From Patescibacteria group bacterium AH-259-L07 (GTDB taxonomy: Bacteria; Patescibacteriota; Patescibacteriia; UBA2591; UBA6264), in NCBI GenBank assembly GCA_027718005.1, contig JALLOP010000003.1, positions 1 to 35,545 of the forward strand: DNA of 35,545 bases. The letters are read 5' to 3'. The notes under the pieces are model-generated. The model was given only the letters and a program-made list of their open reading frames with translations. It did no database searches and was not told the origin of the DNA. Both the position numbers and the translations under genes were made by a program. How positions within the stretch are numbered: the first letter of the stretch is position 1; every line of letters begins with the position of its first letter. Shown one piece after another: positions 10,220 through 30,518 of the stretch.

Positions 10220-11143
10220 ATGTCTTTATTACAACAGACAAAAAATTTGTGTAAACAATATCATATTACGCCCCTCAGACGTCGGGGACAAAATTTTTTA
10301 ATTAACCCTTTCATTGTAGAAAAAGTAATAGCAGCAGCAGGTTTAGATAAGAACGATATCGTAATAGAAGTTGGAGCAGGATTAGGGACATTAACAAAAC
10401 AAATAGCAAAACAGGTTAAAAAGGTAGTAGCGATAGAAATTGATAAAAAGCTGGTTCAAGTGTTAAGCGATGAATTATGTGATTACAAAAATGTAGAAAT
10501 AGTTCATGGCGACATACGAGATCCTACCAGCTACAAGCTACCAGCTACAAGCTATAAAATCGTGGCGAATTTGCCATTTAATATTACTGGTCTAACGTTA
10601 AGAAAATTTTTGGGGCGAAAGAATAGGCCGGAGGTAATGGTGGTGATTGTGCAAAAAGAAGTTGGCGAGCGAATTATAGCCCGTCCCTCAAAAAGGGGAC
10701 GGGATGACAAAAAAGGTAAAATGAATTTATTAGCTGTTTCAGTTCAATTTTATGCTCATCCTGAGATTATATTTTGTATAAGTAAAAATAATTTTTGGCC
10801 CAAGCCAAAGGTGGATTCAGTTATTTTAAAGATCGTTCCCTCGGGAGGGCTGACCTCCAAAAGAGGCCGGACTTTTGATGAGAAATTTTTTCAGATAGTG
10901 AAAGCTGGGTTTTTACATTCTCGGAAGTATTTACTTAACAATTTAGCAACCCTCCCCCTCCGACCCCCGACCTCCCGAGGAGGTCGGGGGTCTACAGCTT
11001 TAAAAAATAGTGCTATAATGATTAAATCATTAAAACAAGAATTGATGAAAATTTTTAACGAGATTGGGTTGAGTCCAAGAGTTAGGGCCCAGGAGTTGTC
11101 AGTGGAAAAGTGGGTCGCTTTAGTTAATAAATTATGCCAGTAG
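10220..11143 (+). CDS. rsmA: 16S rRNA adenine dimethyltransferase with four repeat-derived inserts
   Basis: GQNFL, IEVGAGLGTLT, AIEID, IVANLPFNIT, QKEVGERI, FWPKPKVDS, RAQELS. Confidence 0.96.
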   Translation: MSLLQQTKNLCKQYHITPLRRRGQNFLINPFIVEKVIAAAGLDKNDIVIEVGAGLGTLTKQIAKQVKKVVAIEIDKKLVQVLSDELCDYKNVEIVHGDIRDPTSYKLPATSYKIVANLPFNITGLTLRKFLGRKNRPEVMVVIVQKEVGERIIARPSKRGRDDKKGKMNLLAVSVQFYAHPEIIFCISKNNFWPKPKVDSVILKIVPSGGLTSKRGRTFDEKFFQIVKAGFLHSRKYLLNNLATLPLRPPTSRGGRGSTALKNSAIMIKSLKQELMKIFNEIGLSPRVRAQELSVEKWVALVNKLCQ

Positions 11144-11787
11144 AAAAACAAAATAGACGTTTAGTATTATTTCTTACAATTTTTAGTGTTTTTATTTTTG
11201 TAGTGGGTTATTTTCAGTTTAGGCATGCTATTTATGCGCCGTTTGGTGGTGTTTCTAAAGAACAAACATCACAGCAAATCGAACAGGAGTTATCTACATT
11301 AGTTTTACAAGACGTGGATAAAGACGGGCTAACTGATTTTGATGAACAGTTTGTATATTCTACTTCACCATATATTGCTGATACTGATAGTGATGCATAC
11401 TCTGATAAAGAAGAAGTTGATGCAGGGAGTAACCCTTTAGACCCAAAAAGCACTCCGTATGCGGTCAGAAAAGAGTCGGGAATTCAAACACAAAAAGAAG
11501 GGCCCGCCTCTGCTGAAGCTTCCGCCTCCACTAAAGTTTCGGCGGACAAAACGGCGGGCAAGGAGGAGATTTTAGAGAAAGTATTTCCGGCCCCGGAAAT
11601 AATAGAAGAACCTACCCAAATTTTTAAAGAAAATTTGACTGGGCAGGAGATTAGAGATTTGTTAATACAATCTGGAATAGATAAAGATATTGTGGATAAG
11701 ATGGATGACAAAACCTTAATAAAGTTGTATAATGAAACTATACAAGAAACTGGTATTAACCTAGAGAAATTACAAGGCGCTGAATAG
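11134..11787 (+). CDS. Membrane-anchored protein with TSP3-like Ca-binding Asp repeats
   Basis: N-terminal TM; DVDKDGLTDFDE and DTDSDAYSDKEEVDAGSNPLD; start overlaps the rsmA stop. Confidence 0.75.
   Translation: MPVEKQNRRLVLFLTIFSVFIFVVGYFQFRHAIYAPFGGVSKEQTSQQIEQELSTLVLQDVDKDGLTDFDEQFVYSTSPYIADTDSDAYSDKEEVDAGSNPLDPKSTPYAVRKESGIQTQKEGPASAEASASTKVSADKTAGKEEILEKVFPAPEIIEEPTQIFKENLTGQEIRDLLIQSGIDKDIVDKMDDKTLIKLYNETIQETGINLEKLQGAE
11503..11562. repeat. Nested pair of CCGCCTCxGCTAAAGCTTCGGCGG-type hairpins, in frame
   Basis: Inner copy 11521-11550 (30 nt) inside outer cccgcctctgctgaagct|acggcgggcaag. Confidence 0.85.
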
Positions 11788-11825: not shown

Positions 11826-14800
11826 ATGAGTTACTCAGGGTTTAAAAAATCAGTTTTAGTTAGTTTGATCACTATTTTGATGTTAGTTAGTTTATTTTTG
11901 CCTAAAACGGTTCATGCTCAATTTTTGATTTCTGATCCTGCAGGATTACTTCGAGATATTGGTGAGTTTGCGTGGAAACAGGCTAAGGATTTGGCCAAGG
12001 CAGCGTGGAAGCACGGCGGTGCGTTAGCATACAAAAATACTGTTAACTTTTATTTAGGCGAGATGGCTAAGCAAAGCGCTGAATGGGTGGCGACCGGCGG
12101 AAAAGGGAAAAAACCTTTATTTGCAAGGGATCCTGCTTTTTGGTCCAAATTAGGCGATCAAGCATTAGGAGAATTGATTGATCAGTATTCAAAAGGTTTT
12201 ACCGGAAGAAGCTTATGTGATCCATTTGATCCTACCATTCGTTTTAAAATGCTGGTTTCTATGGACCCAAAGTATCGGGAGATTAAGTTTGATGAGCAAT
12301 TGCGGTGTCCGGTGAGCAAAATCAAACAACGAATAAAAGAGGCAAGCAAAAAAAAGCTTTTTGAGTTTGATTTTGATTTGCGTGATGGACCAGTTGCTGG
12401 GTATAAAGCAAACATGCGGATTATTATAGCAGGAGATAGTGTTTTAAATAAAAATTATACCGGGATCACCAATGCGACTCATGTTTGTTATTCAGATCCA
12501 TCTCTTGATTTGAGCCAGTTTCCTCTTGGGTGTTTAGGGATTTTTGGATTAGGAACGGTAAATAAGGGCGTTGAGAAATTAATTGATATTACGTATAAAC
12601 TTGAAGATATGGGGAAGGAGCTTGAGCGGATTATTACTATATTAAAGCTTTTTGAAGCAGATCAAACCGAGATACGAGAAAAATTAGATGAATTAAATCA
12701 ACAACATATAAAGGCGCAGGAGGACATAATAGCTGCAGAAAACGCAGGCGTGCCAAGGGATCACCTGATACTGTTTTTTCTTAACAAAGATAAAGACAGG
12801 ATAAGGAAACAAATAGATAAGCTTGAGAAAATGCGTATAGATAAAGCCGAACAGATTGAGGCAGTTAATGACCTTATTAAATTACAACGAGATTTAGTAG
12901 ATAATATATGGGCATGGGAATTACTAGATAAAAATCCTGACACACCTGATATTCCTGGTGGACCTCATACGCTTTCTTTTTGGAGCCATTATACTCCTAT
13001 TTGTTCTGCTTTAGGAGATATGAGAGAATACATGAATAACGATGGATGTTTTGAGATTTCTGCTTTAGCAGTAGGTACAAATTTTGCTCCACTTACTATA
13101 CAAGAGGCATATACTAATTCACTTGCATATACCAAACGAGCTAATTCATACGTAAGACAATTAGTTGACTGGGCAAACACATTAGGAGATATGATTGAGG
13201 ACACAAAACTAAGTGATGATAAGGTACTGGAGACCCCAGATCTTGATCCATTAGAGGATATTAATCGTATGTATAACCCTGAAGGCAGTGATATTGGCGT
13301 ATTAGCAAGAATAGAATCTGATCTGTTGCGAAAGCAAACAACCGAAGTAGAAAAGTCTAAATTTTTCCAAACACTTCAGGGGCAAATGAATTCGTTGACA
13401 ACACAAATTTCTGATTTAGTAAAAACGCCATCGATTTATGTGAGTGAATCTGCGAGTCAAGCAGTAGAACAAGGCACTGCTGGGCCATTACAGTATACTG
13501 AAGTTGCGGCAGTTGACGCGATTGGTATTTTTACCAATACGTTGATTAATAAACTTTTAAAACAAATTTTTGAGACTGGGTTTAATCCACAACTTACCCC
13601 AGAGCTTGCAGAGAGAACAAAGCCATTTTTAGATGATGAAGGAGAGTCCGGCAGTCCATGGAGTCCATCGCGCCAGCAAAGCCGAGCCCTGTTTGCTGAT
13701 TTAGCTACGGCTCAATTAAAACGAGGACGAGAAATAACGATTTATGATGAATTTAACGTTTGTCCAAAAAATCCAGCGTACGCACTCCCCACCAATTGTT
13801 TATTAGAAGATAAAGACGGTAATACAATATTGCGAGCAGTAGAGGAAGGGTTGACCATAGCAGATGTTATAGAGAAAGGATTGGGCAGCGGCGCTTTAGT
13901 TGGCCGGCCAAATAATAATACCGGTCTTTTAAGTTTGACTAATATTAAAAAGTTACGGCGGGCACGTATTTTCCCTCTCGGGTTAGAAATTGCTGCTTCT
14001 AAAATTTATAATGGAGAACTTGGTGAAGATCCTGAATACACCCTAGAAGATATTGTTAACGAGTTTAATCAAACAAATTCGTTGGGCACATGTACCGATT
14101 TCAACGGAAGTTTTGAAAATGATGTTAATGACGATAATATCCCAGATGGATGGGTTCTGGGAGGCGATGTTTCACTTGAGACAAGCGAGGTACATTCAGG
14201 TTCTGTTGCATTGCGATTGAGCGGGAGTGGGTGGACCTCTAAGGTACGGCGGACCATCCCTATAAAATCAAATACGGTGTATACCATTTCAACATATGCA
14301 AAAGCAGAGAATAATAAACAACTATTTATTGGTCTATATTTTTATGATAAAGATGGCAATCAATTATTAGCATCTGGTTCAGCTGATGAGATTAATATTA
14401 GCGGTGGATTTGACTGGAGAAAAGGATGCGGCGCATCCTCATGTTATGCAACTGGCAGCATTAGTTTAACCAATACGTATGAGCAGTATGCGTATAGTTT
14501 TCGTTCCTTGCCTGATGCAGCCAGTGTAGAGCTTGTTCCCGAAGGTGCAGCACTTGCTGGTGCTCAAAGCGGAGATGTATTAATTGATGATGTTCAATTG
14601 ACGAGAGGGCAAACTGCTTCAGAAGAATATATGGAGCCATCGCCATTTTGTCATTTAGTTGACTCGAATTGGATATTTAAGAATTTAACCTATCAATGTG
14701 AAACTATTGGTTATTCAGCAATTCCTTTGCCCGGCAGTACTCAGCGTCAGGAAACGTGTGTTGATCTGCGTGATTGTATTAATGAAGATGAAAATGGACA

Positions 14801-17800
14801 ATGTGATACCTGGGGGTATTGTACGCGTGAAAAAAATACATGGCGTTTTAGTGGTAATTCTTGCGATGAGCAGTATGCAACATGCAAGACCTATATACGC
14901 TCAAAAGATAAAAAGCAGGTTTCGTATATAGAAAGAACAGTTGATTTTGGTGAGTGTACTGAAGGCAGTGTTGGGTGTAAATGGTACTGTACTGATTGGG
15001 ACGAAGATAATGGGCGTTGGCAATGTGCTGAGCCGGGAAAGGCACAATGTATAATAACTTCGCCTGCGCCAAGCGGCGGACAAAATTGTGTTTGTGATGG
15101 GACTAACGGGTGTTCTTTTGGTTTTTGTACTGTTAGAGAGGGCGAGAAATCTTGTTTAGTTGATAGTCCTGGCAATGCAATATTTTTTAATACTAATGTT
15201 GAGCAGTGTTTACCCGAAGTTGAAGGATGTAATGAATATATTAGAACCGTAGATGCGCCGCCAGCCCCAGATGGCTCAATAGATGATGAAGCATATAACA
15301 TTAATGATATAATTTATTTAGCAAGCGCTCCCACGTGTCAAGCAAAATATGTAGGATGTCAAATCTATACCCCTTCTGATCAAGGAGTTGCGATTCCGGG
15401 AATTGTAAATGTAGATGATCGATGCGAGGCTCAATGTGTTGGGTATGAAACATTTCAACAAATGCCAACTCATTTTGATACAAATACGAGCTGGGTTAAT
15501 TTTATTCCCGAGACCGCGAAGATGTGTTCGGTTCCTGGATGTGAGGAATTTACTAATTTAGATACGGTGACGCAAGGAGGGGAAGGATTAGAGTATTATG
15601 CATATCTGCGGCACTGCGCCAAGCTTCCTGATGAGGCAGCAAGCTGCGCTAATTTTTATACATGGATTGGATCTGAAACTACGGGATACCAATTAAAACG
15701 GTATCAATTAAAAGCTGATAATAATAACGAGCCAGAAAGAGTTTCTGCTTATAGTGAGGCAAAGAATGTATGGGACAAATGTGAGGATGCGACTGATTCT
15801 TTTTTTAATCCACATTGTAAAGAATTTTATAACGAATCAGGCATATCATCGTATCGTTTATTTAGAAATACGATTAGCTGTTCAGAGGAGTGCTCTCCTT
15901 ATCGGAGAACTATTGATGGGTCTTCGCGTATGGCAATTCCAAATCAGGGAGAAGTATGTAGTTTAGCTGATGTTGGATGCTATGAATATAAAGGACCAAC
16001 TGCTAATAATATACGCATATTATTTACTGATGATTTTGAATCAGGAATAGTTACGCTATGGCAGGGTGGAGAAATTTCCTCAGAATCAGTCAATCCTCCT
16101 CCCAGTTCATCAATGGAAGTATCAGGGGGCGAGGCTTCAAAGAAAGTGGCTAGTTTGGTCGCGCAAAATAAATCATATTTCCTCTCTTTCTGGGTTAAAG
16201 GAATTAATAGTATTAGCGCTCGGTTTTCTTCACTATCTTCTCAACCAAGATCCGGGCTTGATGCAAGTGAATGGGAAGAAGTACAATTAGGCCCGTTTTA
16301 TTTTGATACGGCGCCTCAAACTAATGAAACACTGTTCATTACCGCTGCTGATATTTTCTATATTGACAATATTACGCTCAAAGAAATATCTGATGATGTA
16401 TATGCAATTAAGGATTCATGGTTTACGCCGCAAATTTGTGATCAAGATTTTCAAGACAATGATATCCTTGGCGCAAAGCTTGGGTGCCGTCTTTATACTG
16501 ATAAAGATAATGATCCACATTATTTAAAATCATTTACCCGTTTATGTAAAGATTCTGATGTCGGGTGTGAAGCATTAATTGATACACAAAATTATTCAGC
16601 TTCACGTACGGGCGGCACGTTTAATGATGACAATACTGATTCAAAAGATAATGTAACGGTTCCTGCTGATGAAGTAGTGTATCGTGTTAATGATAAAGAG
16701 TATTTTTGTCAGGCAAAAGATAAGGGGTGTGAGAAAATGGGGCTGCCTCAATTAAGGCAAGATAATACGGTAGAGCGCTATGATACGGTATATATAAAAA
16801 ATGATCCTGAGCTTTATACAAAAGAGCCACTGCTTTGCCAGATTGAAGATTTAGGGTGTGAGGCATATGAGGGCGAGGGCGGTAATAGATATTTTAAAGA
16901 TCCAGAGATTACTAATAAGCTGTGTGAGTATCGAGAAAATGTTTTGATAGGAGGAGAGGCTAAAGTTGGCTGGTTTAAGACTGACACTGATCAGCCATGT
17001 TATGATAATCCTGTTTATTATCAACCGGATAGTCTTACCTATGGTATTCGTTCAGCTTATAAAGTATGTGATGCCGGGGATAATATTGGCAACGCTTGTT
17101 TGAGTGATGCTGATTGTCAAGGAGAGACCTGTGTCAAGATCTATGATGGTTGGGTCGGGATTTGTCCGCGCAGTCAGAATAGTTGTACCGCGTTTTTTGA
17201 TCCAGGCTGGGCTGGCCGCAAAGGTACTAATATACAACAAGAGGGGGCAGAAGTTAGGAAACTTGAAACTGGTTTTAGGGAGGGAGATTTCCATATTGCC
17301 GTTCAAGCGGCTGCACCTGCGTTAGTATCATCATCATCATCATTTACACCTCTCCCCCAATATTATTATTATCTTAACAACGAGAGATTGGATAGAGGAG
17401 CAGAAGAATGTCAAGCGCAAGTTTCATTAAAACGAGGTTGTATCCTTTTCAACGATCCAAATATTTCTTCTTCATCATACAGTAGTTTGGCCACTTACAT
17501 AAAATCAGCTCAATCAGATGTTCCTGATGGGCCTGTAGTCCCTGTTGATTGTGAACCAACTCCTAAACCTGATTGTACTGATCCATTAAATGCAGAGCGT
17601 GAGTATTGTTTGTATTGTGATCCATATGGGCAGGAAAGAAATGATACGAATGCCATAATAAAGGTGCGCAGAGATCGGACTTGCGGTGAATGGTTGAGCT
17701 GTACTAGTTTTCATTTAGAGACTTCAGGGGGAACAACCCGTCAAGTTTGTGATGAAGTAAGTCGTTGTGATGAACTTGTTGGATCGGGAGAAGCCTCACG

Positions 17801-20150
17801 ATGTGCTAATTTTGTCGGACCACCCCCAGAAGTATTAACTGAAGAAGTGTATAAGAGCCGCGATATATCATTTTATGGCATGGATTACTCTGGCTATTCT
17901 TTACACAATATGTATCCAGTCGAAGAGTTAGTCCTTGCCGAAACGCAAGGAATTTATCGATTAACCTATGAAGGTACTGCTTCTGGAGTTGATGGAAAAG
18001 GAAATACGATTGAAAAAGCGTGCCGAATTTATCCAGAAAAGGATTCACCATTTAAGAAGAGCATAGGCCCGGGCGGTAATAATTATTATCCTGATGTTAC
18101 TGTTTGTGAAGATGAGAACGATCCGCAATGCCAATGCTCATATACCAAAGCAGAATATAGCGGCGCTGTTAAATATTATAATTCAGACAGCTCTGTACCG
18201 ATTGGGATTTGTATTGGCGGCAATGATAATGGCAAGGCATGTGTAACCAACAATGATTGCGATAAACAGAATTGTTCATTTAAGACAAAGCAGACACGGG
18301 CTGTTGGCGTAAGCGGATATTGTTTAGAGCCTGATGTGAGTAAAGAGCCAAGTCCTAATAAGCTAGATATTAATGTCTGTATTACCTGGTGGCCAGGACA
18401 GAGTTTAGGTGATCCAAGCGTAAATCAGCAGTTTAGAAGCGCAGGGTATGAGGCATCAGAAAACAGACAGTGGTATTGTCTAAATGAAATATTTGGACCT
18501 ACTGAGATTGTTTTTCAAGATACTAAGGCAGGAGGGTGTAGTAATAATTTTAATACTGAATGCGAGCTTATAACTTATTCGTTAGCAAACCTTTCTCCAC
18601 CCAATCCCGAAGTTCAATCAAAAGAAGTGGAAAAAATTAAAGTTAAACTCATAGTAGATGATGGAGCCGCAGATCAAGGTAAAAATTGTAGTAATGCAGA
18701 CTGGAGAGGTGATGTTGAATTAACGAGTGCTAATAATTGGACGCGCGGAAAACACAATGATGATGGTACGACTTCTGAGAGTAATACGTGGGATACTAGT
18801 TGTGTTGATGTTGGTGAAACAGCCGTAAAAGTAAGAGCCTGTTTTGGCAATACGTGTAATAATGGAGATGAGGATTTTTTAAATAGATTTGAATTTATAT
18901 TGTCTGACAAGTCTGGCGGTAAAGCAACGGTTGGGGTTAAGGATATAAGGATTTATCTTAAAACAGGGTGTGAATATATTGTTAATGTTGCTACGGACGG
19001 GAATATAACTACTGCATGGACTGATCGTTTATGGAGTGAGAGTAAGTATTATAAGGATAATGATGGCGCAGTAGAGTGCCGTCCCTATGGCACAGCTGAC
19101 ATTAGTGGCTCACCAGAAGAATTAGTTTTGGTAGGAGACGGCGAAGCATGTACATTAGGCCAGGCCAATGTTGCTTATAGTGAAGCAGGTCTACAAGATT
19201 TATTTGCTCGAATTGGTCAGAAAAAACAGTTTCTTTATAAGGTTCAAGATCAAACATGTGTAGGAGCACTTCAGGGGATGTGTACACTGGATTCGAGTAT
19301 ACCGTGTCATGAGAATGCCGATTGTGTTGATGAGGGATTCTGTATTGGACCGTTTCCACCTGATTTTGACAGCGCGTGTTCAAATACAGGAGATCGGTGC
19401 AATTCTGATAGTGACTGTTCCCAAAATTACGGGACGTGTAGTGGAGGGAATATAGGACATTGTTCTGTTACTACCGGTATAGAATGTAGGGAGCCTAATC
19501 CTGAAGAACTTACTCCTGATTGTCCACAAGGTGACGCTCTCATGAAGTATGTTGATGTAAATTTAGAGGTTAAAAATTGGGATATTACCAGCACTGCAGT
19601 ATCTCGCGCACCTCAGGTGGCTTCATTAGATTGTAGAACTAAGAGCACTTGTCTTGGTATAAATAAGGTTACGATTGGGAATTCTGACAGCGGAAATATT
19701 GATCGAGAAGAATCATATACTGCTAATTTAAAATTTTATGCATGGGCCAATGAGAACCATATGCCTATCAGAAATATTGCTATTGATTGGTTAGGCAATG
19801 GCGCAGAAGATATTTCTTATAAGGTAATGGCTAAAAATCATAGGCCATTTTGCGACGACAGGCCTACTCCTGGCGGAGATAGTTTTGGCGGCAGTGAGAA
19901 AGCTTGTGTTGAAGAGTATTGGGAATTTACACGTATTTTTAAATGCGTTGGTGATACGAGTGAAGGGTGGGGGGCATTTAAGAATGAAAATAGTATATGT
20001 GCTACGGCTTGCTGTTTTAAACCAACAGTGTATGTCAAAGATAATTGGGATTGGTGTAATGGCGAAGTATATGCTGGAGCGGATAGTAGATGTGTTAGTA
20101 TAAGTGGCGCGGGGACTTCGTACGATGGTGTAGTTATTGTGAGACCATGA
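11826..20150 (+). CDS. Giant exported cysteine-rich protein (putative T4SS-associated adhesin)
   Basis: Signal peptide ending VHA|Q; about 110-115 Cys by manual count; repeated C-x5-GC; two CBM-like domains; ATG 11826 preferred over GTG 11805. Confidence 0.8.
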   Translation: MSYSGFKKSVLVSLITILMLVSLFLPKTVHAQFLISDPAGLLRDIGEFAWKQAKDLAKAAWKHGGALAYKNTVNFYLGEMAKQSAEWVATGGKGKKPLFARDPAFWSKLGDQALGELIDQYSKGFTGRSLCDPFDPTIRFKMLVSMDPKYREIKFDEQLRCPVSKIKQRIKEASKKKLFEFDFDLRDGPVAGYKANMRIIIAGDSVLNKNYTGITNATHVCYSDPSLDLSQFPLGCLGIFGLGTVNKGVEKLIDITYKLEDMGKELERIITILKLFEADQTEIREKLDELNQQHIKAQEDIIAAENAGVPRDHLILFFLNKDKDRIRKQIDKLEKMRIDKAEQIEAVNDLIKLQRDLVDNIWAWELLDKNPDTPDIPGGPHTLSFWSHYTPICSALGDMREYMNNDGCFEISALAVGTNFAPLTIQEAYTNSLAYTKRANSYVRQLVDWANTLGDMIEDTKLSDDKVLETPDLDPLEDINRMYNPEGSDIGVLARIESDLLRKQTTEVEKSKFFQTLQGQMNSLTTQISDLVKTPSIYVSESASQAVEQGTAGPLQYTEVAAVDAIGIFTNTLINKLLKQIFETGFNPQLTPELAERTKPFLDDEGESGSPWSPSRQQSRALFADLATAQLKRGREITIYDEFNVCPKNPAYALPTNCLLEDKDGNTILRAVEEGLTIADVIEKGLGSGALVGRPNNNTGLLSLTNIKKLRRARIFPLGLEIAASKIYNGELGEDPEYTLEDIVNEFNQTNSLGTCTDFNGSFENDVNDDNIPDGWVLGGDVSLETSEVHSGSVALRLSGSGWTSKVRRTIPIKSNTVYTISTYAKAENNKQLFIGLYFYDKDGNQLLASGSADEINISGGFDWRKGCGASSCYATGSISLTNTYEQYAYSFRSLPDAASVELVPEGAALAGAQSGDVLIDDVQLTRGQTASEEYMEPSPFCHLVDSNWIFKNLTYQCETIGYSAIPLPGSTQRQETCVDLRDCINEDENGQCDTWGYCTREKNTWRFSGNSCDEQYATCKTYIRSKDKKQVSYIERTVDFGECTEGSVGCKWYCTDWDEDNGRWQCAEPGKAQCIITSPAPSGGQNCVCDGTNGCSFGFCTVREGEKSCLVDSPGNAIFFNTNVEQCLPEVEGCNEYIRTVDAPPAPDGSIDDEAYNINDIIYLASAPTCQAKYVGCQIYTPSDQGVAIPGIVNVDDRCEAQCVGYETFQQMPTHFDTNTSWVNFIPETAKMCSVPGCEEFTNLDTVTQGGEGLEYYAYLRHCAKLPDEAASCANFYTWIGSETTGYQLKRYQLKADNNNEPERVSAYSEAKNVWDKCEDATDSFFNPHCKEFYNESGISSYRLFRNTISCSEECSPYRRTIDGSSRMAIPNQGEVCSLADVGCYEYKGPTANNIRILFTDDFESGIVTLWQGGEISSESVNPPPSSSMEVSGGEASKKVASLVAQNKSYFLSFWVKGINSISARFSSLSSQPRSGLDASEWEEVQLGPFYFDTAPQTNETLFITAADIFYIDNITLKEISDDVYAIKDSWFTPQICDQDFQDNDILGAKLGCRLYTDKDNDPHYLKSFTRLCKDSDVGCEALIDTQNYSASRTGGTFNDDNTDSKDNVTVPADEVVYRVNDKEYFCQAKDKGCEKMGLPQLRQDNTVERYDTVYIKNDPELYTKEPLLCQIEDLGCEAYEGEGGNRYFKDPEITNKLCEYRENVLIGGEAKVGWFKTDTDQPCYDNPVYYQPDSLTYGIRSAYKVCDAGDNIGNACLSDADCQGETCVKIYDGWVGICPRSQNSCTAFFDPGWAGRKGTNIQQEGAEVRKLETGFREGDFHIAVQAAAPALVSSSSSFTPLPQYYYYLNNERLDRGAEECQAQVSLKRGCILFNDPNISSSSYSSLATYIKSAQSDVPDGPVVPVDCEPTPKPDCTDPLNAEREYCLYCDPYGQERNDTNAIIKVRRDRTCGEWLSCTSFHLETSGGTTRQVCDEVSRCDELVGSGEASRCANFVGPPPEVLTEEVYKSRDISFYGMDYSGYSLHNMYPVEELVLAETQGIYRLTYEGTASGVDGKGNTIEKACRIYPEKDSPFKKSIGPGGNNYYPDVTVCEDENDPQCQCSYTKAEYSGAVKYYNSDSSVPIGICIGGNDNGKACVTNNDCDKQNCSFKTKQTRAVGVSGYCLEPDVSKEPSPNKLDINVCITWWPGQSLGDPSVNQQFRSAGYEASENRQWYCLNEIFGPTEIVFQDTKAGGCSNNFNTECELITYSLANLSPPNPEVQSKEVEKIKVKLIVDDGAADQGKNCSNADWRGDVELTSANNWTRGKHNDDGTTSESNTWDTSCVDVGETAVKVRACFGNTCNNGDEDFLNRFEFILSDKSGGKATVGVKDIRIYLKTGCEYIVNVATDGNITTAWTDRLWSESKYYKDNDGAVECRPYGTADISGSPEELVLVGDGEACTLGQANVAYSEAGLQDLFARIGQKKQFLYKVQDQTCVGALQGMCTLDSSIPCHENADCVDEGFCIGPFPPDFDSACSNTGDRCNSDSDCSQNYGTCSGGNIGHCSVTTGIECREPNPEELTPDCPQGDALMKYVDVNLEVKNWDITSTAVSRAPQVASLDCRTKSTCLGINKVTIGNSDSGNIDREESYTANLKFYAWANENHMPIRNIAIDWLGNGAEDISYKVMAKNHRPFCDDRPTPGGDSFGGSEKACVEEYWEFTRIFKCVGDTSEGWGAFKNENSICATACCFKPTVYVKDNWDWCNGEVYAGADSRCVSISGAGTSYDGVVIVRP

Positions 20151-23276: not shown

Positions 23277-25202
23277 ATGGCAGAGAAACAATCCTCCTCT
23301 GCTAAACCTGTCCGTCCGGCAGGCGGAGCTTCGGAGGACAAAGAAAAAAAAATAGATTTTAAAGATAAAAAAGTAAGAAAGTCGCTCTATAAAGAGATTG
23401 GCCAGGGTTTTTATGATAATCCAACAAAGATTAAACAGTGGAATAAAAAACGAGCAGCCTTGGAGGAGTTTTTAAAAGAAAATAAGACGCTGCCTGAAGA
23501 TAATCCTTCTTTATATAAAGAATGTCAGGATTTATTAACTCGGCTTCAATGGTATTCATTTTTCTTTATTTCTTCAGACGATGCAGTTAATCTTTTTAAG
23601 TCGGGGATTAATATTGCGCTTTCGGAAAAGTCTTTTCCTCTAGAGACATATTTAAGTGTATTTTTGCTCAATATTCCTTCACTTACTTTACGAGATGAGT
23701 ATAAAGGAAAAATTCGCCAAGCAGTAGTAGAAAGTAAAAAAAGAATAACCTCAGGAGATATTAGAACAGTTGCTGATTGGCTTACATTGTATAATAGGGA
23801 ATTAGGAACAGGAGAAGTGGAAAAAGTAAGAGTGGCAGAATTTTTAAATAAAAATGAACATATTATTAAACTGTCTTCATCTGAAAAAACAAAGATCAAG
23901 AGGCTTTTTGAATTGTATGAAGAATTAAAAATTCCTGCTAACACTATTGAGGGACTTGAAGAAGAAGTATATGTGCTTAATGAACAAGGGGAACTAGAAT
24001 TTCATAAAAGAGGAAAGGTGGAAAATATAACAAGAGCAGTTGAGCGGGAAGAAGCAATGGAAGAAGCAAAAAAAAAGCCGTCCCCACCTCCACCAATTAA
24101 TTTAAACACCGCAATAAAGAATGCGATGGAGGGCGCAGGCCTTACATTACCTGACCAAGCATTACAAAAAAGATTTGAAAATATTGCTAAATCATATTTT
24201 GGTAATGTACGTACTGAAATTGAAACGCGCATTGTATTAAAACGGGATACAAAAGTTGGCGGTATGGGGCTTGATGACGAAACAGCAGATAAAGTTATAA
24301 ATATATTTAAAAAAGAAAAGCCGCAGGTCACTGTTGAAGAGCCAGTTAAAACGCCCGGCGTTAAACAGGCTATTTCTAAGCCAACGCCGGGCGTTAGCAA
24401 GAAACCGGATACAGGATTGGCTAAAGAATTAAGGCCGCCGGAGGAATTAATTGCTGCAGAGACAAGAATGCAGGCTGTGTCACGTAAACCAGAAGAAAAA
24501 CCTAAAAAAGCGCTTGAAGAAAAACTTCCGCCCAAGGCGGATCAGCCTCGGGCTGAAAAAGAACCGGAAATTAAACCAGAACCAAAATTAGAAGAAAAGC
24601 AAGCGCCAGTATCTGAACCTCGGCTTGTTCAAGAAAAAAAGGTTGAACCACCAAAAGAAGTAAAAATTGAGGAAAAAGTTGAACCCAAAAGAGCACCTCA
24701 GGCAGCGCCGAAAGCAGGGGCCCCTCCGCCTACTCCAGAGCCGCCCAAGGCAGAACCAGAAAAACCTCCATCTCCTGCGCCTATAAAACCAGTAACACCG
24801 CCAGTACCAGAAATAAGAAAACCAGCTGCCCAACCGCCAGAAGGAAAACCAATAGCCGAAGAAATAAGAGTTAAGCCGCGAGCACAGGGACCTGTTGATG
24901 AATTGCGGTATCTTACTTTAGGTGACTGGCGTAGATGGGGTTCAACTCAGGATGCGGCCCAAAAAATTCAAGATAAAATTAATTTATTAGCTGAAGAATC
25001 ATTAACTAAAAAAGCAGAAGCGGTAAAAGCATGGAAAGAGTCAGAAATTAGTAAATTGTATTTACAGCTTGGCGAGGAATCAATTAATGAGGGAAAATCA
25101 GTTGAAGAGGTTATTAAAGATCGCCAGCAGACTGGAAAACAAACTTTGACCAAAGAGGAGTTTGATGCAGTAGTAGGACTTAATCGAAAGCTACGCTTTT
25201 GA
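23277..25202 (+). CDS. Hypothetical cytoplasmic protein with a Pro/Glu/Lys-rich linker
   Basis: 641 aa ORF in the operon; helical ends separated by a PEK-rich region. Confidence 0.75.
   Translation: MAEKQSSSAKPVRPAGGASEDKEKKIDFKDKKVRKSLYKEIGQGFYDNPTKIKQWNKKRAALEEFLKENKTLPEDNPSLYKECQDLLTRLQWYSFFFISSDDAVNLFKSGINIALSEKSFPLETYLSVFLLNIPSLTLRDEYKGKIRQAVVESKKRITSGDIRTVADWLTLYNRELGTGEVEKVRVAEFLNKNEHIIKLSSSEKTKIKRLFELYEELKIPANTIEGLEEEVYVLNEQGELEFHKRGKVENITRAVEREEAMEEAKKKPSPPPPINLNTAIKNAMEGAGLTLPDQALQKRFENIAKSYFGNVRTEIETRIVLKRDTKVGGMGLDDETADKVINIFKKEKPQVTVEEPVKTPGVKQAISKPTPGVSKKPDTGLAKELRPPEELIAAETRMQAVSRKPEEKPKKALEEKLPPKADQPRAEKEPEIKPEPKLEEKQAPVSEPRLVQEKKVEPPKEVKIEEKVEPKRAPQAAPKAGAPPPTPEPPKAEPEKPPSPAPIKPVTPPVPEIRKPAAQPPEGKPIAEEIRVKPRAQGPVDELRYLTLGDWRRWGSTQDAAQKIQDKINLLAEESLTKKAEAVKAWKESEISKLYLQLGEESINEGKSVEEVIKDRQQTGKQTLTKEEFDAVVGLNRKLRF
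24526..24558. repeat. 33-bp double-hairpin element (inverse of the leuS copy)
   Basis: ttccgcccaaggcggatcagcctcgggctgaaa; encodes PPKADQPRAE. Confidence 0.9.
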
Positions 25203-25277: not shown

Positions 25278-25694
25278 ATGCAATTTGTCGTTCCACAATT
25301 TATTGATGTTGAGAGTAAAATTATTGGGCCGGTCACCCCCAAACAGTTTGTTATTCTTATCATTACCGCCCTGTTTTTGTTTGTTTCATATAAACTGGCT
25401 GATTTTACCTTATTTATTATTGAGGCAGTCATTATTTTTGGATTAGGCGTAACACTTGCATTTTTAAAAGTAAATGGTCAGCCGTTTTACTTTTTTCTCC
25501 TCAATATTGGTCATTCATTAAAGAAACCAAGTTTACGCATTTGGAAAAAAGAAATGATTCCTATTGTTGAAGAAAAAGGAAAAAAATTAAAAGAAGAAGA
25601 AAAGGTAGTTACGGCGCGAAAGCCTTTAGCCACATCCAAGCTTTCACAATTAGCGTTACAAGTTGACACGGGAGGAAGATATGAGGAGGAGTAA
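25278..25694 (+). CDS. PrgI-family (VirB3-like) membrane protein
   Basis: MQFVVPQFIDVESKIIGPVTPKQF, two TM helices, NGQPF. Confidence 0.85.
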   Translation: MQFVVPQFIDVESKIIGPVTPKQFVILIITALFLFVSYKLADFTLFIIEAVIIFGLGVTLAFLKVNGQPFYFFLLNIGHSLKKPSLRIWKKEMIPIVEEKGKKLKEEEKVVTARKPLATSKLSQLALQVDTGGRYEEE

Positions 25695-25699
25695 AATTT

Positions 25700-26374
25700 A
25701 TGGCAAAAGCAAAATCGAAAACTAAATTACCATCAACTCAAAAGTATTTAGATATTTCTGAGATTAGAAATGATTGTGTTGTGTTAACAAACGGCAGTTT
25801 GTGTGGTATTGTATTAACATCTTCTATTAACTTTGCCTTAAAATCAGAAGATGAACAAAAAGGTGTAATCTCCGGCTATGTGCAATTTTTAAATAGTTTA
25901 GATTTTCCTATGCAAATCATTATTCATAACAGGCCGTTTAATATTAAGCCATATCTTGCGCAGATAGAACAATTAAAAAAAGCGCAAACGAATGATTTAT
26001 TAAAAGATCAAATGGGTGAGTATAGTGATTTTATAAAGGAATTAGTTGGTATGGGTGAGATTATGAGCAGACGCTTTTATATTGTCGTTCCGTATAATCC
26101 CTTAGGCGATAAAAAGCGCGGATTTTTTTCTCGCTTATCTGATGTGTTTAGCGCGGCAAGGGTAGTTAAAATTAAAACAGAACGATTTGAAAAGTATCGA
26201 GAAGCGCTTTTTAAACGAGTTGATACAGTACGATCCGGTTTAAGTACGATTGGCGTGAGTGCAGCACCGCTCGATACCCAAAGTTTAATTGAATTTTTCT
26301 ACACCATTTATAACCCGGCTGAGTCAGAAATGCAAAAAATGACAGAAATGAAGAACCTCAGGGTTCAACAATGA
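25700..26374 (+). CDS. VirB4/TraC-associated protein (N-terminal-domain-like)
   Basis: STQKYLDISEI…SSINFALKSEDEQ…FLNSLDFPMQI…FYIVVPY; lies between PrgI and VirB4. Confidence 0.7.
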   Translation: MAKAKSKTKLPSTQKYLDISEIRNDCVVLTNGSLCGIVLTSSINFALKSEDEQKGVISGYVQFLNSLDFPMQIIIHNRPFNIKPYLAQIEQLKKAQTNDLLKDQMGEYSDFIKELVGMGEIMSRRFYIVVPYNPLGDKKRGFFSRLSDVFSAARVVKIKTERFEKYREALFKRVDTVRSGLSTIGVSAAPLDTQSLIEFFYTIYNPAESEMQKMTEMKNLRVQQ

Positions 26375-26483
26375 AGAATGCAGAATGAAGAATGAAGAAT
26401 TGGGGTAGAGCTCATTCATTATTCTAAATTCATCATTCATCATTGAAAATAATTCATCATTCTAAATTCATAATTCATAATTG
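26370..26483. repeat. Inverted heptamer tracts (AATGAAG)n…(ATTCATC/A)n
   Basis: Left arm 26370-26401; right arm present twice (26414-26444, 26452-26483). Confidence 0.85.
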
Positions 26484-26487
26484 TAAC

Positions 26488-29400
26488 ATGGCTATTGAAG
26501 TACCAACAACGGAGAAACAAACCTCACCAAAGAAGGCAAAGAAACAAAAAACCCGCCAAGATACAATTACTGCAGAGCAAGTTTTGGTTACAGAAGAGGC
26601 GTATCGTAGAGGGCTGGTGTCTATTCGCGATTTGATTGCCCCGTCTTCGCTGCAGGTTAGTCCTATGTATTTACAGCTTGGCAATCGATATTTGCGAACG
26701 ATTTTTGTAACCACATTCCCTCGATATATTTCAGTTGGCTGGTTTGCTCCCATTATTAATTTTAATGCCTCTTTAGATGTGGCAATGTTTTTCTATCCGG
26801 TTGAGGCAAAAATTGTGCTAAAGCAATTACAAAATCAAGTAGGCAATATTGAAGCACAATTGTCTGAAGAGCATGAAAAAGGCATGCCAAGAGACCCGGT
26901 AAAAGAAACTGCGTTAAAAGATATTGAACGACTACGCGATGAGTTAACAACTGGCGTTGAACATTTTTTCCAATTTTCTCTGTATGTGACCATTTATGCT
27001 AAAGATGAGAAAGAGTTAGATACCTTAACAGAGAAAATAGAAAATTTATTTGCGTCAAAGCTGGTATATACACGCCGGGCATTTTATCAAGCTGAACAAG
27101 GATTTGACTCAACCCTTCCTTTGGCAAATGACAAGATAATGGTTTCCATAAATATTAATTCATCACCTATTGCTTCAAGTTTCCCGTTCATCTCTGCTGA
27201 CCTTACTTCAGATAATGGCATTTTATATGGGATTAATCGGCATAATAATAGTTTGATTTTGTTTGATCGATTTTCCATGCCTAACGCCAATTTCACAATT
27301 TTCGCAAGTTCAGGCAGCGGTAAAAGCTTGACAAAAGACACTCCTGTTTTAGTAAAAGACAAAGGAAATATTCAGCTAATAGAGATCGGTCCTTTGGTTG
27401 AAAAAATAATTAAAAAGCGTGGAGCCGTTCAGATAGAGGATGAAATTGAAGGGGTAGTTGATCCAGGCCTTGAGGTTTATACTTTTAATAAAGAACTGAA
27501 GGGCGAATGGTCAAACGTTACAATTGCGGCGCGAAAAAAAGCGCCAAAAACGTTGTATCAATTTAAAACACAAAGCGGCAGATCAATTACCACCACCGGT
27601 GATCATAATATGTTGGTTTTACGAGAGGGGAAAGTAGTTGCTGACAAGAGTGATAATATTAAAGAAGGAGAATACGTGCCTTTGTCTCGAGAAATTTCTG
27701 GACCAAAAAATCCAACAAAAGACTTTAATCTGCTCACTCTTTTAAAGAATGCATATAACGTATATGTTGATGGTGCACAAGAATTTATACAACAACATTA
27801 TTCTGTTCTAAAGAACGCAAAAATTAATCCTAAGTTTGATAGATATCTATATAAATATCGCCAGCGCAGACGGATTCCATTAAGTTATTTTATGCAGATT
27901 TTACAGTATCTTAGTATAGAACCGGACAAAGAATTATGTCAAAAGGTAAAAGTTTGTTCTCGCAATAATAAAGGGAAAGAAAATACATATTTACCTGCCT
28001 TATTTGAGATTACGCCAGAATTTTTACGCATTTTAGGATATATTATAAGTGAGGGAACGACTGGCGATAAGTATGTTTTGATTACTAACACTAATCCAGA
28101 AGTGCAAGACGATATTAAACTATGCTTGAAGAAGTTAAATATTGCATATAATATTCGGGCAGGCGAAACATTTGCATTTATTGGAAGAGCATTTGTTGAG
28201 CTTATTAAAGCTATAGGAGCATATGGAAAATCAGGGGAAAAAAGGGTGCCGCCATTTATATTTAATCTCTCTAATGAACATATCGCCGAATTCTTAAAAG
28301 CATACTTTGAAGGAGATGGCGGCGTTGAGTCTGCTTCAATCAATGCGACTTCCAAGTCCGCTGACCTTATATCTGATCTTTCATATCTTTTAATGCGACA
28401 TGGTATTGTTTCGCGTTCTGGAGTAAAAAAGAAATGCGCTACCAACACCCTAGATAAAAAGATGAGAAGTTATTGGCATATAAGCATTACAGGACAGAGC
28501 AATTTAAAACAGTTTTTAAATAATATTAATTTTGTTTCTGTTCTTAAGAAGGAAAAGTTAAGAGCGTTGATAGGTAAGAATGAAAATACTAATGTTGATT
28601 TGGTGCCAGGAGTTCAAAATATTTTCAGGGAGGTATATGAATTATTTTCTTTTCAATTACATGGGCTGTCAGATATTAGCAACATCAAGAATGGATTTTA
28701 TAATCCCTCAAGAGATAAACTAAAGGAGCTAATCAAAAAAATTGAACAAAGAATTGAACAATTTAAAGAGTTGGAAAAAAAGTTTGAGATTTTAGAAACA
28801 TTGCCGCAATTATCTTCCATAATTGATACTGGTAAAAATAATAAAGAAATAAATACAGAGCTGTGGAGTAGTTTAGGACATAGTTGGCGATTAATGAAAA
28901 ATAAAGAAATCCGTCCACGTTCAGTAAATGTTTTTAAAGCAGTTAAAATTATTAATGGCGCATTATATTCTTTAACTGATATTAAACAAGCAGTTCATAC
29001 GGGTTTCAAACGAATGAATCTGTCCATAAAGCATTATAAGCATTCACTCAATACCTCGTTAGTTCATAAACCAGAGAGTAATATGCGATATGATATACTT
29101 TATGAAGCAGCCACTTTTGTTCAAGATAATTATCAGAGGATGCTTGAAAGGATTCCCCAAGTCGAAGAGAAATTGCAGCATCTTAAGCTGTTGGCTCATT
29201 CCGATCTATTTTGGGATCCGATTGTTGAGATTAAAAAACTTCAAAATAAAGGTAAATATGTATATGATTTAATGGTTGATAATGAGGTTTTCTTAGCTGG
29301 CCAAAATGGGATGTTTGTTCATAATTCATTTTTCGCTAAATTGGAGGTGCTGCGATCAATGATGATGGGGACTGATGTGATTATTATTGATCCGGAAAAA

Positions 29401-30375: not shown

Positions 30376-30518
30376 TCCCTCACCCAGAAATTATAATGCT
30401 CAGCATTTTTGTCATGTTCTGGGGAAGGGAAATAAAATTAGAGAAATAAAAGGTTAGAACTAAGTAAATTAATAATTATGCTTCGCATTAAAAAATGCAT
30501 AATTTCTGGGTGAGGGAT
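30375..30518. mobile_element. MITE with perfect 20-bp terminal inverted repeats
   Basis: atccctcacccagaaattat (30375-30394) / ataatttctgggtgagggat (30499-30518). Confidence 0.88.

Follow-up and report, generated by a model that had tools for sequence, protein, structure and literature searches.

The window that we analysed, the whole stretch of DNA of 35,545 nucleotides, carries a gene for what its sequence indicates to be a real, secreted and disulfide-rich Patescibacteria protein of 2,774 residues, hereafter called the giant. On balance we favour the view that the giant serves as an adhesin for host contact, carried by the Patescibacteria type IV secretion system (T4SS), and that its huge sugar-binding-type tail probably touches the host cell. 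The protein belongs to an unnamed family of at least 1,150 clusters at 50% identity and is undescribed in the literature searched. It was present as a single copy in 23 of the 24 sampled genomes of its class, which bears the NCBI names Magasanik-, Uhr-, Falkow-, Kerfeld- and Veblenbacteria. The features of the giant and of its neighbours are collected in Table 1.

Table 1. Features of the giant gene and of the surrounding T4SS cluster (aa, residues of the giant unless a protein length is given).
Feature	Position	Strand	Basis or remark
217-aa membrane-anchored protein with TSP3-type Ca-binding repeat	11134..11787	+	TSP3_bac E 8.5e-5; one N-terminal TM-like segment
Giant protein, open reading frame	11826..20150	+	2,774 aa from ATG start; one open frame without interruption
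Sec signal peptide, aa 1-31	11826..11918	+	Sequence; predicted cleavage after VHA
Processed N-terminal motif QFLISDPA, VirB5-type	11919..11942	+	Family alignment, model matches, hhalign
N-terminal helical module, aa 32-745	11919..14060	+	AF2 model, profile matches
Coiled-coil insertion within the N-terminal module, aa ~165-470	12318..13235	+	Homologue alignment, AF2
CBM_4_9 jelly-roll, variable site 0	14100..14525	+	Pfam match aa 759-844, E 3.6e-9
Cys-rich scaffold blocks A and B, aa 935-1392, four C-x5-GC hairpins	14628..16001	+	Conserved Cys columns, AF2
Conserved Cys-free CBM-type beta-sandwich, aa 1392-1523	15999..16394	+	VIA-align, Foldseek
Cys-rich scaffold block C, aa 1523-1790, three C-x5-GC hairpins	16392..17195	+	Cys columns, AF2, alignment
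Cys-rich scaffold block D, aa 1850-2220	17373..18485	+	Invariant Cys and Trp columns
Variable region, aa 2220-2600	18486..19625	+	Alignment of 16 proteins
Conserved C-terminal domain, aa 2600-2774, and stop codon	19623..20150	+	Alignment; without TM segment or LPxTG
Extended VirB6/TrbL-like polytopic protein, 1,015 aa	20197..23244	+	Pfam TrbL E 0.003
641-aa soluble protein, no known family	23277..25202	+	Conserved after VirB6
PrgI/VirB3-like protein	25278..25694	+	Pfam PrgI E 8.4e-5
TrsD-like protein, VirB4 N-domain-like	25700..26374	+	NCBIfam TrsD E 4.8e-6, VirB4_plasma E 8.8e-10
VirB4 ATPase, CD1110 family, split by LAGLIDADG intein	26443..30375	+	NF045971, Intein_splicing, LAGLIDADG_3
187-aa single-TM protein	30517..31080	+	Conserved after VirB4
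VirB2-like T4SS pilin with 18-Cys C-terminal extension	31120..32511	+	Pfam T4SS_pilin E 1.2e-5, NF045849 E 9.7e-5

The ATG at 11826 (MSYSGFKK...) was taken as the start since it fits the N-termini of the homologues; an alternative GTG lies upstream in the same frame at 11805 (+ strand). The signal peptide followed by AQFLISDP, which had been described from the sequence alone, was confirmed: a hydrophobic core leads to VHA and, after the predicted cut, to QFLISDP, and the Ala at position -1 is invariant in all 55 family N-termini aligned. The motif itself is conserved to different degrees among these N-termini (Ala in 55, Gln in 39, Val in 36, Asp in 35 and Pro in 33). Scanning the surroundings of the gene for promoters and terminators gave site counts no higher than in shuffled sequence, and a promoter-like site at 11705-11733, with 11 of 12 matches, is thus a lead only.

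The processed N-terminus resembled VirB5/TrbJ and no other recurrent family when 24,736 Pfam and 18,950 NCBIfam models were searched. The VirB5 model NF010434 matched 11 of the 55 family N-termini, DUF4141, which is also precomputed on bona fide VirB5s, matched 17, and two TrbJ models matched two each. These matches are short: those to NF010434 cover profile positions 6-43 of 220 and score 15-20 bits against a cut-off of 346, and the VirB5-model matches end about 15-20 residues into the mature protein. The N-terminus of the query gave a match to DUF4141 only (E 0.0014) and none to the VirB5 models at E<=1; PF07996 had no match in the whole genome at E<=10. Alignment of the family N-terminus with VirB5 by hhalign gave a probability of 89% (E 2.3e-6) over 26 columns, which fell to 18% if the signal peptide was left out. 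The similarity is visible in the mature ends, QFLISDPA in the giant and QFVVSDPA in the VirB5 of A. fabrum. The VirB5-like nature suggested by the sequence-only reading therefore held for the motif at the signal-peptide and processed end, while no wider similarity of sequence or fold was found; at motif level only, and as judged from these alignments, the early V-x-D-P-like motif does belong to the VirB5 type.

Behind this motif, the AF2 model of mature residues 1-717 was essentially all helix (pLDDT 69.9, pTM 0.42). It opens with a helix-loop-helix (H7-31 and H35-58), the pLDDT being just 42-65 over the first 60 residues. The helical or coiled-coil character that had been assigned to the first ~650 residues agrees with the model, whereas the boundary does not, the end of the N-terminal module (N-module) lying near residue 745. 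Within the module, the coiled-coil insertion consists of long helices (pLDDT ~90) and is lineage-specific, occurring in only part of the family: it measures 306 residues in the query, 18-19 in the homologues P0014-P0016 and 185-327 in the other homologues. The core of the module, of ~230-440 residues, carries conserved Cys pairs in the family alignments, and its profile matched 2,790 cluster representatives. Foldseek against the PDB with the N-module model (pLDDT 69.9) gave nothing at E<=0.001 (best 0.06, TM ~0.1), and a PDB profile search with the family gave no match below E 0.077. In its wide mode, VIA-align matched the insertion to nothing but generic helical bundles or coiled coils, the best at Z 11.9, which is under the tool's noise for helical models. 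No VirB5 chain was among the fold matches of the module, for a 717-residue model that is large and uncertain for domain-level comparison. A co-fold prediction of two copies of VirB6 aa 53-400 with mature residues 1-175 of the giant scored 0.00 and was informative in neither direction.

The giant gene lies in a T4SS cluster in which VirB6/TrbL, PrgI, TrsD, the CD1110-family VirB4 and the T4SS pilin are encoded on one strand throughout. Its stop codon is separated from the virB6 start by 46 nt, and no terminator-like site was listed in this gap by the terminator scan. The VirB6-like protein combines about 10 TM-like segments with a charged tail of ~600 residues, for which BLASTP against the 641-aa protein gave a best E of 0.62; VirB4 scored 329.7 bits against NF045971 (cut-off 325). 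No relaxase was seen within the window. The cluster is of the monoderm type: PrgI, TrsD and CD1110-type VirB4 are given as markers of the MPF-FATA type of monoderms in a recent survey (PMC12102498). The linkage with virB6 and virB4, whose absence would have spoken against the sequence-only reading, was found to be conserved: among the 38 in-class loci that extend 3.5 kb or more beyond the giant, 33 have VirB6 downstream and on the same strand. The distance was within 1.5 kb in about 20 of the 38 and reached 6.6 kb in some loci, and in five of the 38 no VirB6 was present within 4.6-10 kb downstream. The gene for the TSP3 protein directly precedes the giant in 52 of 59 in-class loci. Gene order alone is, however, weak evidence, because the housekeeping gene for KsgA accompanies the giant as regularly as virB6 does, and that for LeuRS often does too.

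This cluster resembles the Patescibacteria chromosomal T4SS described by Wang et al. 2023 (PMC10633639) and Quinonero-Coronel et al. 2025 (PMC12102498) in VirB6, PrgI/VirB3, TrsD, VirB4 and the VirB2-like pilin, and differs in a protein at the VirB5 position, none being named in the available text of either paper. The available text of the second, a survey, also reports that no adhesin was detected for the Patescibacteria T4SS and no PrgB homologue in Patescibacteria. The T4SS was reported to be essential for epibiotic growth in Southlakia epibionticum, the single species for which the literature consulted gives Tn-seq data (PMC10633639). This essentiality is not transferable to the N-module, because the 5′ neighbour of virB6 in S. 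epibionticum is, according to the published supplement, a divergently transcribed pilin gene and not the module.

The first ~230 mature residues of the giant, which form the first half of the N-module, recur as stand-alone secreted proteins, mostly of 265-370 residues, in other classes of Patescibacteria. A profile built from giants only was weakly matched in 6 of 376 out-of-class genomes, in each case just upstream of VirB6; after the profile was widened, 37 of the 376 genomes were matched, six of these by construction since they had been used in the profile. About a tenth of the sampled out-of-class genomes, at the least, have kept the N-module. Giants and stand-alone modules have common motifs visible in a joint alignment. 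In 22 of the 24 out-of-class loci examined, the stand-alone module was encoded immediately 5′ of VirB6 on the same strand, and most such loci showed the complete series KsgA, TSP3 protein, module, VirB6, 641-aa-type protein, PrgI, TrsD, VirB4; the TSP3 gene was present in 20 of the 24. Pfam gave one match above the curated cut-off on the 24 stand-alone modules and none within the shared module. This match, to MgtE_N (E 8.7e-11), was observed in a protein of 1,203 aa, outside the shared module. Judged from sequence and position, the N-module belongs to the Patescibacteria T4SS cluster independently of the giant. Since the stand-alone modules lie directly 5′ of VirB6, the giant is a fusion of such a module, which takes the "VirB5 position" in the T4SS cluster, with a scaffold of ~2,000 residues.

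We consider it unlikely that the giant is instead a general surface adhesin or an S-layer-like envelope protein with no physical or functional tie to the T4SS, lying in a strongly conserved neighbourhood by coincidence. The equal synteny of KsgA, and often of LeuRS, speaks for such a protein, as it implies a neighbourhood that keeps its order regardless of function, and so do the five in-class loci in which VirB6 is not nearby. It would not account for the position of the adhesin-free module, which in distant classes is still found directly 5′ of virB6, nor for a processed N-terminus that resembles VirB5/TrbJ. Furthermore, the giant has neither a membrane nor a wall anchor of its own; LPxTG was absent from the last 60 residues of all 137 full-length family representatives. 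As a large candidate surface adhesin encoded with a monoderm-type T4SS, the giant recalls the PrgB-type LPxTG adhesins, from which it differs by this absence and by the lack of PrgB-type domains according to Pfam, in the giant, in its pieces and in the homologues.

The place and signal of the N-module invite comparison with VirB5 proteins of diderm systems. The VirB5 fold is a helical bundle with a globular appendage, as in the crystal structure of pKM101 TraC. The giant shares with VirB5/TrbJ the Sec signal peptide, a helical start, a gene immediately 5′ of virB6 and a VirB2-like pilin in the cluster; it differs in size (2,774 residues against ~220) and in belonging to a monoderm-type and not a diderm system. 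In R388, the VirB5 protein TrwJ is described as a pentamer mounted on a VirB6 pentamer (Mace et al. 2022, PMC9259494). A precedent for a secreted protein of larger size in the place of VirB5 is provided by TraH of F, which the HInt preprint (10.64898/2026.07.31.741991) proposes as a VirB5 analogue unlinked to VirB5 by conventional sequence or fold searches; an N-terminal helix-loop-helix is there the only locally conserved feature between R388 TrwJ and F TraH. In F, traH directly precedes traG (VirB6). TraH differs from our protein in having no giant extension, and hhalign of F TraH with the N-module alignment gave no profile similarity (probability 0.28%).

The remainder of the giant is rich in cysteine. 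We counted 114 Cys (4.1%), eight in the first 750 residues and 106 beyond, in agreement with the figure of about 105 given by the sequence-only reading. The six C-x5-GC units quoted there (CTEGSVGC, CLPEVEGC, CSLADVGC, CKDSDVGC, CQAKDKGC, CQIEDLGC) were found together with a seventh, CQAKYVGC at aa 1171, whereas shuffling aa 641-2774 2,000 times gave a mean of 0.45 and a maximum of 4; the 137 representatives have a median of 7 such units (range 4-11). To call the cysteines arranged in these units was nevertheless an overstatement, because only 14 of the 106 lie within them. The AF2 model of the Cys-rich region, which extends to about aa 1800, was all-beta (pLDDT 81.8), and in each unit it predicted a strand, C, a short 3-10 turn, GC and a strand, so that the C-x5-GC unit is, in the model, a stapled hairpin. 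No internal repeats were detected by self-BLAST of the giant. Many Cys columns are invariant across the family, 82% of the 137 representatives have an even number of Cys, and a check for disulfide-forming genes in the genome gave two VKOR and two DsbA-like genes.

A comparison of homologues, which had been called for to separate conserved scaffold from variable inserts, revealed just such an alternation: identity to the query was 45-51% in the scaffold blocks versus 26-30% at the insert sites. In block B, 14 Cys are present in the query as well as in 12 of the 14 homologues spanning this block, and block D measures 351-403 residues in 14 of 15 homologues (633 in P0016). The variable region ranged among the 16 proteins from 146 to 661 residues for aa 2220-2420 and from 83 to 215 for aa 2420-2600, with an identity to the query of 0.27-0.29. 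Site 0, filled by CBM_4_9 (PF02018, 37.5 bits, cut-off 25.9) in the query, carries an insert in three of the 16 aligned proteins, the query included, while site 1 has an insert of 188-262 residues in all 14 comparable homologues and none in the query.

A second CBM-type domain, the beta-sandwich at aa 1392-1523, occurs as one strong copy per protein in all 137 representatives. It superposed on CBM22 4xup_A with Z 15.2 and an rmsd of 3.1 over 127 aligned residues (VIA-align), and on 4xup_C with a TMt of 0.60 (Foldseek). Both domains are related in this way to CBM4/9/22, from which they differ by sitting inside a Cys-rich non-enzymatic scaffold; CBM-type folds are found in non-adhesive proteins too. 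Fold searches with the Cys-rich model (Foldseek against the PDB, VIA-align wide, BFVD) listed only matches through the embedded jelly-roll, or low-TM matches (~0.1) to beta proteins of several domains, among them binary-toxin B components, Vip proteins and phage tail proteins. TraN was absent from these matches, which barely probe the stapled-hairpin blocks themselves. For aa 1850-2774, the best score in the ESM Atlas was 0.76 (PKD), under the usable level. With the model extending to about aa 1800, the whole scaffold of ~2,000 residues would be a cysteine-stapled beta structure with CBM-type jelly-rolls at variable sites. Its modelled part is a large and confidently predicted beta architecture, in which only the embedded CBM-type domain was matched among solved structures in the searches run.

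Such a scaffold could also belong to a structural conduit of the T4SS, a rigid disulfide-stapled stalk or sheath that would bridge the envelope and the space up to the host instead of recognising it, and whose CBM-type modules would bind the wall or S-layer glycans of the cell itself. We regard this as improbable, more so than a general surface protein. The high conservation of the scaffold blocks, block B with its 14 Cys in particular, would suit a conduit, as would the near-universal single-copy gene in the class, the one CBM-type module kept in every representative, and the description of monoderm-type T4SSs as devoid of the VirB7/9/10 core (PMC12102498). However, the place and length of the inserts differ between lineages, which fits recognition better than a fixed conduit, the module of 265-370 residues alone suffices in other classes, and the fold searches of the Cys-rich model returned no pore- or tube-like fold.

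It is still far less probable that the giant is a secreted scaffold that captures or degrades polysaccharides to scavenge nutrients, as glycoside hydrolases with CBMs do. Glycanases typically contain CBM_4_9 and CBM22-like folds, but Pfam found no catalytic domain in the whole protein, in six pieces of it at E<=5 or in 16 homologues, and an N-module at a T4SS position would be left unexplained. Finally, the chance that the giant is a homologue of TraN, the F-type mating-pair stabilisation protein that is likewise Cys-rich and T4SS-linked and to which the tail had first been likened, is negligible, and this homology was rejected at the sequence level: PF06986 had no match in the genome at E<=10 with a positive E. 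coli control, hhalign of the family with F TraN gave a probability of 0.16%, and the cluster is of the monoderm type (PrgI, TrsD, CD1110-type VirB4), not of the F type of diderms. TraN is an outer-membrane protein of diderms. Its resemblance to the giant (Cys-rich, associated with a T4SS, proposed to bind the partner surface) is at most an analogy.

For the host-contact adhesin that we favour, the following mechanism can be proposed. The giant would be exported by Sec, its signal peptide would be cut after Ala31, and the VKOR/DsbA-type enzymes encoded by the genome would then form its disulfide bonds. The N-module would hold the protein on the T4SS, bound either to the VirB6-like platform or to the VirB2-like pilus rising from it, at a site corresponding to the place of VirB5 in diderm systems. 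In this class, the module bears an extension of ~2,000 residues made of conserved blocks, predicted to be rigid, cysteine-stapled and all-beta, into which CBM-type beta-sandwiches and other inserts are set at sites that differ between lineages. From a location at the tip, the extension may reach the host cell and bind its surface glycans, and may therefore set which host the T4SS engages. An adhesin that sets host specificity, as the sequence-only reading had proposed, is plausible in view of the CBM modules and variable inserts.

A bolder version is possible, if rather doubtful: the N-module would be the missing VirB5 equivalent, docking on VirB6 and capping the VirB2-like pilus, with the arm fused to it in this class, and five copies would form a megadalton tip complex whose swappable inserts choose the host. 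If true, the VirB5-VirB6-VirB2 logic of stalk and pilus would extend to monoderm-type T4SSs.

A large fraction of uncultivated bacteria belongs to the Patescibacteria, whose members seem to live attached to host cells. The secreted module at the VirB5 position is a concrete candidate for the host-contact part of their T4SS. It offers testable handles in the binding of the module to VirB6, the glycan specificity of the CBM domains and the co-variation of inserts and hosts, and the stand-alone forms provide a minimal version for study.

The giant Cys-rich protein is encoded by a single open frame of the + strand extending to 20150, in which translation may start at 11805 (GTG) or at 11826 (ATG), the latter yielding 2,774 aa. 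As the sequence-only reading had noted, a typical Sec signal peptide ending in VHA is followed by QFLISDP. Of its 114 Cys (4.1%), 8 precede residue 750 and the other 106 follow it. All six C-x5-GC units listed by that reading were found, and a seventh, CQAKYVGC, was added at aa 1171; shuffling aa 641-2774 (2,000 times) gave a mean of 0.45 and a maximum of 4 against these 7. Although the units do recur, the view that the Cys are arranged in them holds only in part, since they contain 14 of the 106 Cys. Because self-BLAST also revealed no internal repeats, C-x5-GC is a recurring micro-element and not the repeat unit of the giant. Among sigma-70-like sites in the region, the best (ATGACA, 17 nt, TATAAT; 11/12) is located about 90 nt 5′ of the ATG, within the end of the preceding gene; overall, the promoter scan of the region showed no enrichment over shuffles.

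The surrounding genes form a monoderm-type chromosomal T4SS known from Patescibacteria (excerpts of PMC12102498 and PMC10633639). The VirB6-like protein has a signal-like N-terminus ending AHA↓Q, with Ala A52 invariant in 31 homologues, and a charged cytoplasmic tail of ~600 aa that bears no likeness to the following 641-aa protein (BLASTP, best E 0.62). The VirB4 intein of ~630-670 aa carries two LAGLIDADG_3 stretches and is matched by Pfam Intein_splicing (aa 336-961) and by the NCBIfam N- and C-terminal intein models (aa 296-392 and 939-962). In the pilin-like protein, a VirB2-like two-TM core (aa ~59-128) precedes a ~330-aa extension with 18 Cys, which makes it a second cluster protein with a disulfide-rich outer part. 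A search for Dsb genes, proposed by the earlier reading, was positive: the genome (1.41 Mb, 148 contigs, 75.6% complete) carries genes for two VKOR and two DsbA-like proteins, so that extracytoplasmic disulfide formation is plausible. The LysM-CHAP hydrolase, present upstream in 19 of 72 related loci (tblastn), may serve as the wall-cutting enzyme of VirB1 type; according to excerpts of a 2025 survey (PMC12102498), such an enzyme is often not found near virB4. The gene of the TSP3 protein begins 10 nt before KsgA ends, and the pilin gene is followed at once by two toxin-antitoxin-like tandem pairs.

Features of the giant's neighbourhood, in nucleotides of the window
Feature	Position	Strand	Remarks
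LysM-CHAP peptidoglycan hydrolase	6204-7415	-	strand opposite LeuRS and T4SS cluster
LeuRS			upstream of giant
KsgA	10220-11143	+	upstream of giant
TM protein with TSP3-type Ca-binding repeat	11134-11787	+	217 aa; upstream of giant
Best sigma-70-like site	11705-11733	+	
Giant	11826-20150	+	
VirB6/TrbL-like polytopic protein	20197-23244	+	1,015 aa; downstream of giant
641-aa protein		+	no known family; downstream, after VirB6
PrgI (VirB3-like)		+	downstream of giant
TrsD-like protein		+	NF041427, E 4.8e-6; downstream of giant
VirB4 ATPase, CD1110 family	26443-30375	+	split by LAGLIDADG intein
Single-TM protein		+	187 aa; downstream of giant
VirB2-like T4SS pilin with Cys-rich tail	31120-32511	+	463 aa
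Two HEPN + nucleotidyltransferase (MNT-type) pairs	32664-34099	+	

A word-indexed search returned 15 relatives of 1,781-3,583 aa, mostly from Patescibacteria and named by NCBI only 'hypothetical' or 'carbohydrate binding domain-containing', which align end to end with the giant and share many invariant Cys. Scanning one genome per species gave 136 relatives, of which 72 loci were kept; in their record titles appear Magasanik-, Uhr-, Falkow-, Kerfeld- and Veblenbacteria, which we take to be GTDB class ABY1. With a profile of the N-module (the helical front part, aa 32-745), 2,790 of 1.84 billion cluster representatives matched at E<=0.001 and 1,150 at E<=1e-30; among the 150 matches listed, most measured 2,500-3,400 aa and all carried the module N-terminally. 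The 137 full-length representatives have a median length of 2,925 aa, a median of 105 Cys (86-166; even in 82%) and of 7 C-x5-GC units (4-11), and none contains LPxTG. Across 401 sampled genomes of the phylum, the giant was single-copy in 23 of the 24 from its own class/order, with frames of 2,035-4,310 aa.

The linkage to virB6 expected from the window was conserved. Among the 38 in-class loci whose sequence continues for at least 3.5 kb past the giant, 33 showed by tblastn a same-strand VirB6 homologue further downstream (32 by HMM, L067 being missed through the overlap filter), at <=1.5 kb in about 20 of them and up to 6.6 kb between genes in the others; five loci (L020, L024, L033, L051, L065) had no VirB6 within 4.6-10 kb downstream. 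The TSP3 protein lies directly upstream in 52/59 in-class loci; of the seven misses, L007, L043, L055 and L061 have a TSP3 match 5′ of a giant frame that is split, and in the other three the frame is truncated at the contig's 5′ end. KsgA is as syntenic with the giant as VirB6 is, so gene order alone is no proof of function, and an adhesin without relation to the T4SS, rather unlikely in our judgement, still carries some weight.

Outside the class, the giants-only profile matched 6 of 376 genomes, all weakly (E 1e-14 to 1e-5) and in frames of 274-915 aa. All six stand directly upstream of a VirB6 homologue, and VirB4 is also present in five of the clusters, the sixth contig ending just after virB6. 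Alignment A7 makes the shared elements visible: besides the signal peptide, these are two conserved Cys, a Gly-rich motif (GG-x-G-x-P-x-F) and, near its end, a motif that contains TP. A widened profile, built with the six out-of-class seeds, whose genomes match by construction, detected 61 of 401 genomes, 37 of 376 being out-of-class (23 at E<=1e-9), with frames mostly of 270-370 aa. The module was immediately 5′ of VirB6 in 16 of 18 further out-of-class loci (exceptions L098 and L102), that is in 22/24 altogether. Most of these have the order KsgA, TSP3 protein, N-module, VirB6, 641-aa-type, PrgI, TrsD, VirB4, often then the 187-aa-type. TSP3 homologues of ~290-430 aa directly precede the module gene in 20/24 loci, and the TSP3 protein looks like another unnamed member of the T4SS cluster. 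ksgA is upstream of the cluster on the same strand in 20/24 of these loci and in most in-class loci, an unusually deep synteny of a translation gene with a secretion cluster.

Of the 24 out-of-class proteins, 17 measure 265-368 aa and 7 measure 548-1,203 aa; Pfam gave nothing above the curated cut-off except MgtE_N (E 8.7e-11), outside the common module of the 1,203-aa L099 protein (8897-12508, - strand). Since the mid-sized proteins of 784-1,203 aa (L099, L079, L083, L092) have other C-terminal parts, the N-module has been extended more than once. That this module also stands by itself 5′ of VirB6 indicates that the giant belongs to the T4SS cluster as the component in the VirB5 position, to which a class-specific extension has been fused. 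In supplement rows for S. epibionticum, the gene 5′-adjacent to virB6 is a divergent pilin gene; the Tn-seq data of that organism do not cover the N-module. The giant family and a VirB5-position protein are both undescribed in the excerpted literature on the Patescibacteria-clade T4SS, and papers mentioning DUF4141 were unrelated by title.

The likeness to VirB5 suggested by the earlier reading held, in sequence, for the processed N-terminus but not for the body. The mature end of A. fabrum C58 VirB5 (Ti plasmid record) is QFVVSDPATEAE and that of the giant QFLISDPAGLLR; 55 family members share the consensus A↓Q-(F/L)-x-V-(S/T)-D-P (Ala 55, Gln 39, Val 36, Asp 35, Pro 33). Scanned singly, 17 of these N-termini match Pfam DUF4141 (best E 1.4e-5), which is precomputed on several genuine VirB5s, and 11 match NCBIfam VirB5 NF010434 (best 8.5e-5); the TrbJ models match 2+2, and no further family recurs in more than three. 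Aligned by hhalign with 23 VirB5s, the family N-termini gave Prob 89% (E 2.3e-6) over 26 columns only, Prob falling to 18% without the signal peptide. Matches to the VirB5 model span positions 6-43 of 220, PF07996 had no match in the genome at E<=10, and a PDB profile search found nothing. The AF2 model of the N-module is all-helical (pLDDT 69.9, pTM 0.42) and opens with a helix-loop-helix; no VirB5 chain appeared in the results of either fold search with this large, 717-residue model. Excerpts of a preprint (10.64898/2026.07.31.741991) describe F TraH as a VirB5 analogue found only via its predicted VirB6 interface, an N-terminal helix-loop-helix being the only local conservation. Blank sequence and fold searches are therefore compatible with a VirB5-type role, and the giant plausibly works like VirB5, with the sequence likeness to that family confined to the N-terminus.

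The Cys-rich extension was confidently predicted by AF2 as all-beta over aa 930-1799 (37 homologues; pLDDT 81.8, pTM 0.62), each C-x5-GC unit forming a strand, turn, strand hairpin in the secondary-structure string. A structural conduit, as another reading of the giant, appears to us quite unlikely. CBM_4_9 at aa 759-844 is the sole Pfam family above cut-off, and a second CBM matches weakly near aa 1398-1467. There, aa 1392-1523 form a Cys-free jelly-roll (Foldseek TMt 0.60) that superposes on the CBM22 4xup_A (Z 15.2, rmsd 3.1, 127 aa); the remaining fold matches listed for aa 930-1799 rest on this domain or on TM ~0.1. Comparison of 16 proteins, region by region with the giant as reference, confirmed the suspected conserved scaffold with variable inserts: the conserved blocks (A, B, CBM2, C, D and the C-terminus) share 41-51% identity with the giant, block B keeping 14 Cys in the giant and in 12/14 covering homologues, whereas the variable sites reach 26-30% where the insert is shared. 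Insert site 0, a CBM in the giant, is filled in only 2/15 homologues; site 1 measures 32 aa in the giant versus 188-262 aa in 14/14 comparable homologues; site 3 varies between 12 and 517 aa and the aa 2220-2420 region between 146 and 661 aa. The place of the best Pfam CBM_4_9 stretch also differs from homologue to homologue. A glycan-scavenging scaffold would be a very improbable use of these modules.

The proposed likeness to TraN fails: PF06986 had no match in the genome at E<=10 (E. coli control positive), the family aligned with F TraN by hhalign at a Prob of only 0.16%, the giant's T4SS, unlike that of TraN, is of monoderm type, and we dismiss homology to TraN almost entirely. On balance we favour a giant that is exported by Sec and then disulfide-stapled. 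Lacking an anchor of its own, it would be tethered by the N-module either to the VirB6 platform or to the pilus, and its long rigid arm would present CBM-type modules to glycans of the host surface.
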